Positions 1,236 to 4,159 of a stretch of 36,933 nt of DNA are shown one piece after another (position 1 is the stretch's first letter; every line of letters begins with the position of its first letter). The notes beneath the pieces were generated by a model. It was not told where the DNA came from. It ran no database searches and saw only the letters and a program-made list of their open reading frames with translations. This DNA is from Nitrospirae bacterium GWC2_57_9. GTDB taxonomy: Bacteria > Nitrospirota > UBA9217. The stretch spans positions 1-36,933 of the forward strand of contig MHEA01000034.1 of assembly GCA_001805085.1 (NCBI GenBank), given 5' to 3'. Position numbers and translations under genes: made by a program.

Positions 1236-1247
1236 GGAACAACCTTT

Positions 1248-1362
1248 CAAATTCCAAATGGCAAATTCCAAGCTCCAAATAATATCCAAGCACCAATGAT
1301 CCAAGTTTAGAAATTGGAATTTCGAGCTTGGTGCTTATTTGGAATTTAGTGCTTGTTATTTG
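1248..1362. repeat. AT-rich CCAAAT/ATTTGG long imperfect palindrome (family A, copy 1), sdhA-sdhB intercistronic
   Basis: The left arm caaattccaaatggcaaattccaagctccaaataatatccaagcaccaa faces the right arm ttggtgcttatttggaatttagtgcttgttatttg. An inner hairpin is tccaa-gtttagaaa-ttgga. The element fills most of the 139-nt spacer 1236-1374. Confidence 0.8.
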
Positions 1363-1374
1363 TTGCTAGTTTTA

Positions 1375-3288
1375 TCATTTGTAGCTCCGCACCGCAAGAT
1401 CGACGTTCTCGAACGCCAGCGGCTCCTTATGCAGCTCCGGTTCCCTGCCGTCGCCCTGGTAACCCCAGGCGGACACATAGGAGAAGTCCTTATCGTTCCG
1501 CACGGCCTCGCCGTCTGGCGTCCGGTGTTCGACCCGGAAATGCGCTCCGCAGGATTCGTCCCGCTGGAGCGCGTCGCGCGTGAGCAGTTCCCCGAATTCC
1601 AGGAGATCGGCCACTCTGCCTGCCCGCTCGAGCTCCTGATTCAGCTTCATCCCGGCGCCGGCTACCAGCACGTTCTGCCAGAACTCCTCGCGGAGCGCGG
1701 GAATTTTTTGCAGCGCTTCCTTCAGGCTCGCTTCACTCCGGGTCATGCCCACATTGTTCCACATCAGCTTCCCCAGTTCCCGGTGGAACTCGGCGGGCGT
1801 TCTCTTTCCTTTTACGGAAAGGAGCTTATTCGTGAAAGCCGAAACTTCTTCCCGGGACTGTATGAATTCCGAAAAGTGCGTCGTGATTACGCCCGGTTTC
1901 GTTTCCGCCAAATAGTTTGCGATGGTGTAAGGAAGGATGAAGTAGCCGTCGGCAAGACCTTGCATCAGAGCGCTTGCACCGAGCCGGTTCGCGCCGTGGT
2001 CCGAGAAGTTCGCTTCGCCCAGGACAAAGAGCCCCCGCACGTTGCTTTCGAGATTATAATCCACCCAGAGGCCGCCCATGGTGTAGTGCGGAGCGGGGTA
2101 GATGCGCATGGGCCGGTTATAAGCATTTTCATCGGTGATCCGCTCGTACATCTCGAAGAGGTTGCCGTACCGTTCCCGGATCGTGTCCGCGCCCAGGCGC
2201 CTGATGGCATCGGCAAAATCGAGGTACACGCCGCGGCCGCCAGGGCCCACTCCCCGCCCTTGGTCGCAGACCTCCTTGGCTGCCCGCGACGAGACATCCC
2301 GGGCTGCAAGGTTGCCGTAGGACGGGTATCTCCGTTCCAGGAAGTAGTCCCGTTCGCTCTCGGGGATCTCTTCCGGGGAACGCTGATCTCCCTTCAGTTT
2401 CGGCACCCAGACGCGGCCGTCGTTCCTGAGCGATTCGGACATAAGCGTCAGTTTGGCCTGGTGCTCGCCGGTCACGGGAATGCAAGTGGGGTGGATCTGG
2501 GTGAAACAGGGGTTCGCGAAGAAAGCGCCGCGCTTATAGGCGCGCCAGGTGGCATTCACGCTCGAGCCGATGGAGTTGGTGGTCAGGAAAAAGACGTTGG
2601 CATATCCTCCGGAGCAGAGGCAGACGGCATCGGCGGCAAAGGATCCGATGGCCCCGGTCACCAGGTCCCGGACAATGACACCTTTGGCTTCGCCGTTCAC
2701 CACAACAAGGTCGAGCATCTCCGTACGGGGATGGAGGTTGACCGTGCCCAGCTTCACCTGGCGCAGGAGCGCGCCATAGGCCCCGAGCAGCAACTGCTGG
2801 CCCGTCTGGCCGCGCGCGTAAAAGGTGCGCGAGACCTGGGCGCCGCCGAAGGAGCGGGTCCCCAGATATCCCGCGTAGTCCCGGGCAAAGGGAACCCCCT
2901 GGGCCACGGCCTGGTCGATGATGCCGCAGCTCAACTGGGCCAGGCGGTAAACGTTCGCTTCCCGTGACCGGAAGTCGCCGCCCTTGATCGTGTCGTGGAA
3001 CAGCCGCTCCACGCTGTCTCCGTCGTTGGGGTAGTTCTTGGCTGCGTTGATCCCGCCCTGCGCTGCAATGCTGTGGGCGCGGCGGGGCGAATCCTGGAAG
3101 AAGAAGACATCCACGTTGTAGCCCAGTTCGCCGAGCGAAGCAGCGGCCGAGGAACCGGCAAGACCCGCCCCGATGACGATGATCCGGTACTTCCGCTTGT
3201 TCGCCGGGTTCACCAGCTTCATCTCGGCCCGGCGCAGGTCCCATTTTTCGGGAAGAGGGCCGGAAGGTATTTTACCGTCGAGGATCAT
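1375..3288 (-). CDS. sdhA: Succinate dehydrogenase / fumarate reductase flavoprotein subunit
   Basis: 637-aa ORF with the N-terminal FAD Rossmann motif [13 protein letters not shown] and [14 protein letters not shown] (the covalent-FAD His region of SdhA/FrdA). Its length and position between the cytochrome b and Fe-S subunits fit the call. Confidence 0.93.
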
Positions 3289-3293
3289 GCCTT

Positions 3294-3427
3294 AGCACCA
3301 AATTCCAAATTGCAAGCACCAAAATCCAAATAAATACCAATTTCCAAAAAACAAAATGGGAAACGTTTTGAATTTGACAGTTGAGATTTAGAAATTATTT
3401 GAGATTTGGGATTTGAACTTTGGAATT
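3294..3427. repeat. Family A palindrome, copy 2, sdhC-sdhA intercistronic
   Basis: The left arm agcaccaaattccaaattgcaagcaccaaaatccaaataaataccaatttccaaaaaacaaaa faces the right arm ttttgaatttgacagttgagatttagaaattatttgagatttgggatttgaactttggaatt. The arms are roughly 70 percent complementary by eye, with the centre at tgggaaacg. The spacer 3289-3427 is again exactly 139 nt. Confidence 0.8.
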
Positions 3428-4099
3428 TCATTTTAAGATTCCCATTAAAATGCTGACCGGTATTGCTGCGTACATCAGGAACAGCACGACCGATATCGCC
3501 ATCCCGGTCCTTACCACGACCGGCAGCGTCCTGTCATTGTTCAACCCTTCCGTCTGGATGGAACTCTCTATTCCGTGATACAAATGAAGCCCCAATCCGA
3601 GCACGCCTACGACGTACAAGGCTGCGATCCCGGCGCGCTGAAAGCTCCCGACCACCATCGTCAGCACATCGGGCCGGCCAAGCGCATCGGGATGAGCGGT
3701 CGCCGCAATGCCGGGTTCGATCACCTGGAAGGTGAAGTGCAGGAGGTGGAATATCAGGAAGAGAGCGATGAGCAGTCCGCTCCAGACCATGGTCCTTCCG
3801 GCAAGGGATGCGCTGCGGTAGCGCGTCAGGGCGTAGGTTTCCGGCTTTGCTTTTCTGTTCTCCAGTTTCAATATGATGCCGTACCAGGTGTGGAGGAAGA
3901 CGGAAATGAGGAGGAGCGTCCGGGAAGACCAGAGAATGATGGTATAAGGCCAGTGGCGCAGGCCTTCGGCATAGGCATTGATGGCCCCGGCGAAGATGGT
4001 GTAATTGCCGAGAACATGGGCGATGACGTAGAGGATCATGAACTGGCCGGTCACGGCCATCATGAGCTTTCGTCCGACTGTGGAAGTGGGTAGCAGCAA
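3428..4099 (-). CDS. sdhC: Succinate dehydrogenase / fumarate reductase cytochrome b membrane anchor (single large subunit type)
   Basis: 223-aa protein that looks five-TM, with conserved His residues in the helices (HVLGN, FLHTWYG, HLLHF, HLYHG). It lies immediately upstream of sdhA on the same strand. The N-terminus STVGRKLMMAVTG resembles b558-type anchors. The start is apparently TTG. Confidence 0.8.
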   Translation of the reverse strand: MLLPTSTVGRKLMMAVTGQFMILYVIAHVLGNYTIFAGAINAYAEGLRHWPYTIILWSSRTLLLISVFLHTWYGIILKLENRKAKPETYALTRYRSASLAGRTMVWSGLLIALFLIFHLLHFTFQVIEPGIAATAHPDALGRPDVLTMVVGSFQRAGIAALYVVGVLGLGLHLYHGIESSIQTEGLNNDRTLPVVVRTGMAISVVLFLMYAAIPVSILMGILK

Positions 4100-4116
4100 T
4101 TTTTTAACCCTTGAGA

Positions 4117-4156
4117 ATAAATTCGAAATTGAAATTGTTTCGGATTTAGAAATTTG
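4117..4156. repeat. Family A palindrome, short copy 3, fumC-sdhC spacer
   Basis: aataaattcgaaattgaaattgtttcggatttagaaattt: the left arm aaattcgaaattgaaa faces the right arm tttcggatttagaaattt, within the 60-nt spacer 4100-4159. Confidence 0.6.
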
Positions 4157-4159
4157 TGC

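Follow-up and report, generated by a model that had tools for sequence, protein, structure and literature searches.

We describe a family of AT-rich palindromic repeats that occupy the short gaps between successive genes of operons in Nitrospirae bacterium GWC2_57_9. The starting point is a contig of 36,933 nucleotides (nt; MHEA01000034.1 of assembly GCA_001805085.1, hereafter the window), where two members fill the spacers of a fumC-sdhCAB string of genes. The element is a discrete, alignable unit of ~110-135 nt, made of an arm of about seven degenerate 7-nt units, a short loop, and a mirror arm. It recurs throughout the draft genome, typically within a few nucleotides of a stop codon, and its palindrome is not a structure kept copy by copy. 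We hold with moderate confidence that it is mobile and non-autonomous, a palindromic repeat of the same kind as ERIC, REPIN, and MIRU, and that it resides inside operons. An earlier interpretation of the window, made from the letters alone (the sequence-only reading), had drawn attention to the palindromes in these spacers; its claims are taken up where the evidence bears on them.

The architecture is ordered. Each 7-nt unit has a skeleton of a C, one dialect-defining base, and two A's, with free positions between; one distinct core unit stands at a constant place in the arm, followed by the loop and the mirror image. The earlier remark that units recur at about 7 nt holds: across 56 copies, an arm shifted by 7 nt matches itself at 0.53 and one shifted by 14 nt at 0.45-0.46, with 0.21-0.26 at lags 2-5 and 0.21-0.39 at all lags up to 10 other than 7. 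A makes up 49% of the first arm and G 9.5%; in the second, T accounts for 47% and C for 8%. An A-run borders the hairpin 5' and a T-run borders it 3'. There are two dialects, in which the dialect-defining base changes on both arms together: the type found in the sdh spacers accounts for 33 of the 56 copies and the other for 23. Copies align end to end over ~130 columns, units within an arm are position-specific, and 26 columns are at least 90% conserved in an alignment of 43 copies. The ends are fuzzy; the whole element is an inverted repeat, and the palindrome fades ~5 nt beyond the model.

The family was defined from a seed of 14 look-alike AT-rich islands on other contigs, aligned end to end and turned into an nhmmer profile that was iterated once. 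The genome searched (G000) is a 3.35 Mb draft in 253 contigs, and the same genome reversed served as the control. The profile matches 123 loci at E < 0.01; tightening the cutoff to 1e-3, 1e-5, and 1e-10 leaves 115, 96, and 65, and the reversed control yields 0 matches. The majority of matches cover the full model, and lengths concentrate at 100-130 nt. A covariance model was built from 43 sense-oriented copies. Rfam 15 gives 0 gathering-score matches in the window and only chance-level ones (E of at least 1.4) in positions 1100-4300, in agreement with the earlier impression that this is not a named element, and Tandem Repeats Finder reports no array at any element copy in the window.

Placement in the genome is strongly biased. 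Genes were called with our own simple codon-usage caller, which yields 2,880 genes covering 83% of the genome. Of the 115 loci at E < 1e-3, 9 are at contig ends; the genes on either side are co-directional for 100, convergent for 4, and divergent for 2; hence 100 of the 106 placeable copies are co-directional, against a baseline of 2070 in 2627 junctions (binomial p = 1.4e-5). When the element is removed, 80 of the 106 lie in co-directional junctions with a residual spacer of at most 40 nt, where 1.6 would be expected if copies fell uniformly per intergenic base and 30.7 if they fell uniformly per junction. The median distance is 4 nt from stop codon to element and 13.5 nt from element to start codon, and the median residual spacer is 17 nt. 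The genome-wide profile search thus bears out 2 proposals of the sequence-only reading: a preference for gene boundaries and presence on many other contigs. That reading had agreed to fall if enrichment at boundaries, folding beyond shuffled controls, or copies on other contigs were absent; all 3 were found.

The junctions that bear the element are operon-internal and separate classic operon partners. For a check against Pfam, we kept junctions with a tight fit, both open reading frames (ORFs) complete, a span of at most 6 kb, and a location outside the window's contig. Fifty-four passed, and the first 40 were used, giving 80 flanking ORF entries; a Pfam family was found for 75 of these. The pairs occupied include secD-secF, an ATPase F and A subunit pair, argG-argH, ribBA-ribH, nuoK-nuoL, dsrE-dsrH, glnB-glnA, trpC-trpF, and serC-serA, the strings leuS-lptE-holA and RNase Y-ymdB-xseA, and three pairs of subunits of 2-oxoacid:ferredoxin oxidoreductases. 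At G000:C248:5600-8460, copies stand at four consecutive junctions of a string made up of rpiB, glyA, a deaminase gene, nrdR, and their neighbours.

Folding is a property of the family more than of its individual copies. The sequence-only reading had proposed that each spacer transcript of the fumC-sdhCAB string can form one long hairpin. The sense folds back the proposal for the sdhA-sdhB spacer, whose RNA folds at -38.5 kcal/mol (z = -4.1), and do not back it for the other two: the sdhC-sdhA spacer reaches -24.4 kcal/mol in sense (z = -0.7; antisense z = -3.4), and the sense fold of the 60-nt fumC-sdhC spacer is no better than its shuffles (z = -0.05). Across the family, comparison with dinucleotide shuffles gives a median z of -2.7, with 41 of 56 copies below -2 and 10 above -1. 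Across the centre of the median copy there are 35 pairs, the longest unbroken helix being 10 bp; the T-run forms part of the stem.

Whether each copy is maintained as a hairpin is a separate matter, and here the evidence is negative. RNAalifold applied to the 43-copy alignment returned just 11 pairs, around the core, because the centre of the alignment is poor; we therefore relied on a hand-registered structure and on an alignment-free chimera test. In the hand-registered structure of 49 pairs, 70.7% of cells are paired, against 70.4% when the letters of the 3' arm are dealt out among copies, and the covariation score is 0.149 against 0.153 after shuffling, so that no copy-specific compensatory change is seen; sliding the register by one column drops pairing to ~50%. 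The copies' own arms pair at -29.6 kcal/mol, against -32.6 for chimeras within the same dialect, and chimeras drawn across all copies are weaker (-27.8). Pairing derives entirely from the family skeleton, and palindromy is a property of master sequences and dialects. Since pairing is no better than with dealt-out or chimeric arms, the notion that every copy is maintained as a hairpin finds no support. The element is also without polarity toward transcription: the sense strand folds better in only 31 of 56 copies, and a cross-validated profile prefers it in 46 of 75, by a mean of 1.1 bits. The compensatory changes and defined orientation of a structured cis-regulatory RNA are accordingly missing, as is the GC-rich stem followed by a U-run that defines an intrinsic terminator, the G+C content of the element being 0.27-0.40.

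Sequence relationships within and between genomes point to copying. As the sequence-only reading had judged, the copies are a diverged family rather than recent duplicates: the two sdh copies are identical at 80 of 106 aligned bases, the median nearest-neighbour identity in this genome is 74% when 70% of length or more is aligned, and no full-length pair exceeds ~80%. The copies here are old. Subfamilies in the relative G015 are younger: its 20 best copies include groups with common non-skeleton bases, with nearest-neighbour identity up to 91%, which is the pattern expected from copying of master elements. Distribution is patchy. Among 41 relatives, 26 have matches at E <= 1e-3, with counts from 0 to ~80 within one family, and the sole same-genus genome (G001, 97% complete) has 0. 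A sample of 151 genomes from the phylum contains 31 with matches at E <= 1e-6; within genera, 2 of 4, 2 of 5, and 3 of 4 genomes are positive, and several families have no match (0 of 18 and 0 of 27 genomes).

Copies also turn over at orthologous junctions. The sdh operon of G015 has family copies in both spacers; in G013, one spacer contains what by eye looks like half a copy and the other a palindrome of another kind; and the sdh spacers of G001, G003, and G007 are long and filled with other sequences. Ranked by local alignment score among 56 copies, the same-junction copies of G015 come 20th for sdhA-sdhB and 2nd for the partial sdhC-sdhA copy, and they are not clearly orthologous to the window copies. 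At the window junctions near 12.7 kb and 14.0 kb, no family copy is present in G001, G013, G006, or G015, and one of the two carries, in G006, a palindrome of another heptad type; these four relatives share 76-79% DNA identity with our genome and are too distant to provide clean empty sites.

The element extends well beyond its host phylum. We surveyed GTDB phylum samples (one genome per species) with the covariance model at E <= 1e-6, a survey that is not exhaustive and whose centres were genomes reached through named SdhA loci. Matches occur in 16 of 101 genomes around Desulfobacteraceae (which we take to be Desulfobacterota), 9 of 101 around Vicinamibacterales (presumably Acidobacteriota; 8 of 100 without G312, which is flagged as unpublished), 13 of 121 around Rufibacter (Bacteroidota, as we assume), 4 of 121 around Chloroflexaceae (assigned by us to Chloroflexota), and 0 of 121 around Pseudomonadales (taken as Pseudomonadota). 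Eighteen examples from the four positive phyla, inspected by eye, have the same ordered architecture and both dialects; G+C content of their flanks is 0.35-0.62, and the elements are AT-rich regardless. Counting this genome's own, the architecture is common to sampled genomes of at least five phyla. Contamination of bins is no explanation because matches lie on many large contigs, including a single contig of 3.4 Mb. Crude longest-ORF calls in four of the other-phylum genomes place 12 of 20 copies between co-directional genes, 7 between convergent genes, and none between divergent genes, with 1 undetermined, and several copies adjoin both stop codons of a convergent pair. A near-exclusive habit of operon junctions holds for our genome and was seen by eye in G015; the general rule is that copies directly follow a stop codon and never occupy the promoter gap of divergent genes.

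Several described classes of repeat come close to this element. ERIC (or IRU) elements of the Enterobacteriaceae are imperfect palindromes of ~127 bp that are classed as miniature inverted-repeat transposable elements (MITEs) (PMC3184786). The likeness covers size, the imperfect palindrome, many dispersed copies, patchy counts among relatives, transcribed intergenic sites including sites inside operons, and a proposed effect on mRNA stability (PMC3184786); it is a likeness of description, and no sequence relation is expected. ERIC-type elements have terminal repeats and a two-base flanking motif (PMC3184786), whereas our element has no duplication or target motif; its arms follow a 7-nt skeleton, it is very AT-rich, and it occurs in at least five phyla as opposed to one family. 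REP and REPIN sequences are likewise palindromic, extragenic, and present in hundreds of copies (PMC3116915, PMC3337134, PMC12306157). REPINs form hairpins of ~100 nt without target duplication, and the first REPs to be described were intercistronic operon elements. REPs, however, are GC-rich and ~14-40 nt long, unlike an AT-rich element of ~125 nt with arms of ~50 nt made of 7-nt units, and neither the two short GC-rich REP units nor the co-occurrence with a RAYT gene that define REPINs is found here. In location there is a parallel with MIRUs (mycobacterial interspersed repetitive units), which are dispersed, 40-100 bp long, and inserted where two cistrons of an operon meet; they are transcribed in polycistronic mRNA and are absent from the homologous site in a related species (PMC3184786, PMC12548453). 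Translational coupling is preserved across a MIRU by a small ORF within it that overlaps both adjacent codons, the stop and the start (PMC3184786, PMC12548453); MIRUs are GC-rich with flanking direct repeats, and our element has no flanking direct repeat.

Heptamer-based repeats offer a different comparison. G-rich heptamers form 70-75 inverted pairs per genome in Xanthomonas and Nostoc (PMC4692102), and Beggiatoaceae have direct heptamer repeats (PMC4679880). The 7-nt unit, the intergenic location, the inverted arrays capable of forming stem-loops, and gene positions not kept between species are all shared. Those heptameric repeats are runs of one unit in variable number, whereas our element consists of ordered, non-identical units at a fixed length; it does not have the tandem copies of a single unit, variable in number, that mark short tandemly repeated repetitive (STRR) sequences. 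Correia (NEMIS) elements of Neisseria are inverted-repeat elements of ~100-155 bp that are co-transcribed with their neighbours (PMC3184786); they have defined terminal repeats, target duplication, possible promoters, and a range of one genus, none of which is seen in our element. The sequence-only reading had raised a MITE-like parasite, and this fits loosely: the element is small, non-coding, and dispersed (115 loci of ~100-135 nt), and neither target-site duplication nor a partner transposase was found, the search for the latter covering Y1_Tnp only. Class by class, the defining mark is missing, whether duplication and transposase, a RAYT link, identical tandem units, or compensatory pairs. 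We found no description of such elements, including in Nitrospirota/Thermodesulfovibrio, in a literature search of open-access papers, which are not searchable by sequence.

We propose that copying has carried the family through genomes and from phylum to phylum, and that here it would have settled almost solely in the short gap between a stop codon and the ribosome-binding site of the next gene. Copies would be transcribed within the polycistronic mRNA, where a long, AU-rich, mismatch-rich hairpin could form that is probably too weak to halt RNA polymerase or ribosomes. Modest effects are likely: a change in cistron stability or processing by RNase III or RNase Y, and less close translational coupling. 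The genome encodes both RNase III and RNase Y. Correia/NEMIS elements, for comparison, are processed by RNase III. The palindromic skeleton may be what the copying machinery recognises, as opposed to a structure selected in each copy, and the junction bias would then come from choice of target rather than from selection.

Several observations weigh against a mobile element. We find no near-identical full-length copies in this genome, and hence no sign of recent movement here; nor did we see a site filled in one close strain and empty in another. Fifty-one full-length copies have no direct repeat of 2-6 nt beyond shuffled controls and no target motif. A partner gene was not found in a search aimed at Y1 (IS200/RAYT-type) transposase genes only, and Y1_Tnp does not co-vary with the element across 41 genomes, some of them incomplete. 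If insertion were random and followed by selection, long non-essential gaps would be expected, not the junctions of core operons. The conserved skeleton and the extreme preference for tight junctions could equally reflect a host function; moreover, the skeleton is required for detection, which makes its apparent conservation partly circular. The context statistics rest on home-made gene calls, and the operon-junction rule is not universal because 7 of the 20 copies in other phyla are convergent.

A RAYT/Y1 transposase as the mover was considered and rejected, as gene counts do not track element counts: element matches and Y1_Tnp genes number 81 and 0 in G015, 14 and 0 in G002, 0 and 4 in G001, 0 and 3 in G003, and 0 and 12 in G007.

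The main rival to a mobile element is an intercistronic RNA signal selected by the host, in which a conserved RNA-binding factor (RNase III, RNase Y, and ribosomal protein S1 are examples) reads the hairpin or the 7-nt units on the mRNA. Recognition would lead to processing, segmental stability, or independent translation of the downstream cistron, and copying would merely distribute the signal. We regard this as rather unlikely, and the other three rivals as less likely than this one. It accounts well for the extreme bias towards tight junctions, core operons included, for 26 columns that stay at least 90% conserved while others vary freely, for a skeleton kept across five phyla, for the 41 of 56 copies that fold better than shuffles (z below -2), and for the presence of RNase III and RNase Y genes. 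Yet the arms have no compensatory change; sense and antisense fold alike (31 of 56) with a strand preference of 1.1 bits, where a signal read on mRNA should have polarity; orthologous junctions do not keep their copies; many relatives, one of the same genus included, do without the element; and in other phyla it is frequent between convergent genes. A broader version, to which we give only a small chance, makes the element a punctuation signal common to several phyla: a 7-nt array read in either orientation by a conserved host machine, which may be a ribonuclease, the ribosome, or a nucleic-acid chaperone, and which would uncouple the cistrons of core operons. Were this true, duplication-free copying that homes to the bases after stop codons would represent a new kind of site choice.

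Symmetry without strand polarity could point to DNA, in place of RNA, as the level of action, with phased inverted 7-nt sites that would be bound by a nucleoid-associated, recombinase, or partition-like protein, or with a cruciform-forming site. A repeated short motif that is conserved when pairing is not, and strong AT-richness at any host G+C (flanks from 0.35 to 0.62), speak in the same direction; still, a 7-nt phase is mismatched to the helical repeat of DNA, no candidate protein has been identified, and neither the position after stop codons nor the scarcity of divergent sites (2 of 106 here, 0 of 20 elsewhere) is explained, which leaves this improbable. Growth in place of heptamer simple sequence, as in cyanobacteria and Xanthomonas, would produce inverted arrays by slippage followed by decay, with no mobile unit. 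The clear 7-nt period suits it, as do the other heptamer families of this genome (tandem heptamers and a 97-member palindrome on another heptad) and the inverted heptameric arrays known from Xanthomonas (PMC4692102). It is already largely refuted by the position-specific alignment, in which the core unit is fixed and copies align end to end over ~130 columns; there is in addition no Tandem Repeats Finder array at the window copies, subfamilies have common non-skeleton bases, and the same ordered architecture recurs in five phyla, so that we consider it very improbable. Least probable of all are intrinsic terminators or attenuators inside operons. A hairpin with an A-run 5' and a T-run 3' resembles one, and some other-phylum copies between convergent genes adjoin both stop codons; the stems, however, are AU-rich and rich in mismatches, the T-run is part of the stem, and copies sit between subunit genes that need co-expression (nuoK-nuoL, secD-secF, and 2-oxoacid oxidoreductase subunits).

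A non-autonomous mobile repeat remains our preferred account, and its members in the window illustrate the range of the family (Table 1). The sequence-only reading had counted six copies in the window, and the covariance model agrees, with five clear matches and one weak one. The copy in the sdhA-sdhB spacer stops just short of the sdhB ribosome-binding site. The short copy lies between co-directional plus-strand genes at 10717-12663 and 12747-13988, and the next copy between genes at 12747-13988 and 14171-15670; in the latter, nhmmer matches each arm separately, and an insertion of ~43 nt (roughly 14055-14097) sits in the loop and resembles a GC-rich repeat family of 234 members. The second-dialect copy lies between co-directional plus-strand genes at 23088-24572 and 24703-25134. 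The look-alike between fumC and sdhC is absent from the nhmmer matches at E < 0.01, and membership of that 60-nt spacer in the family is doubtful.

Table 1. Genes of the fumC-sdhCAB string and matches to the repeat family in the window
Feature	Position	Strand	Support
sdhB (iron-sulphur subunit), downstream cistron	492..1235	-	ORF list; start fixed via relatives
Copy in sdhA-sdhB spacer	1246..1371	-	covariance model 84.5 bits, E = 5e-13; nhmmer E = 1.8e-20
sdhA (flavoprotein subunit)	1375..3288	-	ORF; orthologues 77-83% identical in five relatives
Copy in sdhC-sdhA spacer	3297..3431	-	covariance model 99.8 bits, E = 9e-16; nhmmer E = 1.2e-21
sdhC (membrane subunit), TTG start	3428..4099	-	ORF; alignable with 226-aa G013 orthologue
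Weak truncated look-alike in fumC-sdhC spacer	4103..4171	-	covariance model 24.9 bits, E = 0.04
fumC-like gene, first of string	4160..5563	-	467-aa ORF; name from the sequence-only reading
Short copy, 85 nt	12662..12746	+	covariance model 52.6 bits, E = 4e-7
Copy with loop insertion	13973..14156	+	covariance model 94.2 bits over whole span
Second-dialect copy	24580..24700	+	covariance model 76.5 bits, E = 2e-11

The spacers of the fumC-sdhCAB string depend on where its genes start. The ORF list begins sdhB at a TTG at 1304 (492-1304), which falls inside the element, 69 nt upstream of the real start; the start is the ATG at 1235, and the same first codons are found in sdhB of five relatives. 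The TTG is an artefact of the spacer sequence, because the sdhB genes of those relatives match the reading from 1235. For sdhC, the TTG start finds support in the residues upstream of its first ATG, which are kept in the G013 orthologue. With these starts, the spacer coordinates and lengths of the sequence-only reading are right: 139 nt between sdhA and sdhB (1236-1374), 139 nt between sdhC and sdhA (3289-3427), and 60 nt between fumC and sdhC (4100-4159). G+C content falls from ~0.6 to 0.27-0.40 within the spacers. Both long spacers contain inverted arms, as had been said of all three; the description does not extend to the 60-nt spacer with its weak, truncated match. The emphasis once placed on two spacers of exactly 139 nt is misplaced. 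The model lengths of the two sdh elements are unequal (126 and 135 nt), and two random tight element-bearing spacers have equal length with a probability of 0.015; we reject a designed length and regard the equality as a coincidence, and spacers of this size follow from a unit-length element plus short flanks.

Over-extension of starts, as in sdhB, is common: our own gene caller stretched many genes downstream of elements in the same way. At the sdhC-sdhA spacer, a contig assembled from public DNA run X3 has 95 other letters in place of the window's 136 at 3289-3424 and matches on both sides; the difference could reflect a variant in the population, or the palindrome may have collapsed in assembly. 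The contigs of X1, another public DNA run, and of X3 break at the edges of both sdh elements.

The element has practical consequences for the study of such genomes. About a hundred copies of one element lie inside operons, among them those for subunits of respiratory complexes, the Sec translocon, and amino-acid pathways. Within elements, start codons are called wrongly (sdhB is an example), and automated annotation of such genomes may share the error; assembly is affected, since contigs from public runs break at element edges; and in operon prediction, junctions of ~140 nt would pass for operon boundaries. Long AU-rich palindromes would have to be tolerated in essential polycistronic mRNAs if the genes are co-transcribed.

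Other repeats share the intergenic space of this lineage. Interval clustering of spacers of at least 50 nt in the searched genome gives repeat families of 234, 97, 75, and 34 members. The 234-member family is a GC-rich hairpin, one copy of which is nested in the loop of 13973-14156 (Table 1). The 97-member family is an inverted 7-nt array on a different, GC-richer heptad (for example, C11:10244-10415 and C104:5155-5305), with 72 of its 97 members between co-directional genes. The 75-member cluster is represented in the window by a palindromic repeat at 5603-5705, between fumC and a divergent gene. Further heptad palindromes, with units different again, stand at the sdh and adjacent junctions of relatives (L055 of G007, L163 of G006), and heptad-built palindromes look like a general habit of the lineage rather than a single family. 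Within the window, 7277-7304 is a tandem repeat of period 14 in two copies, of the heptamer type of the 75-member tandem-heptamer cluster. Finally, 17723-20534 is a stretch of 2.8 kb without a gene accepted by the codon-usage caller, with ORFs of 114-235 aa on both strands; it may be foreign or atypical DNA.

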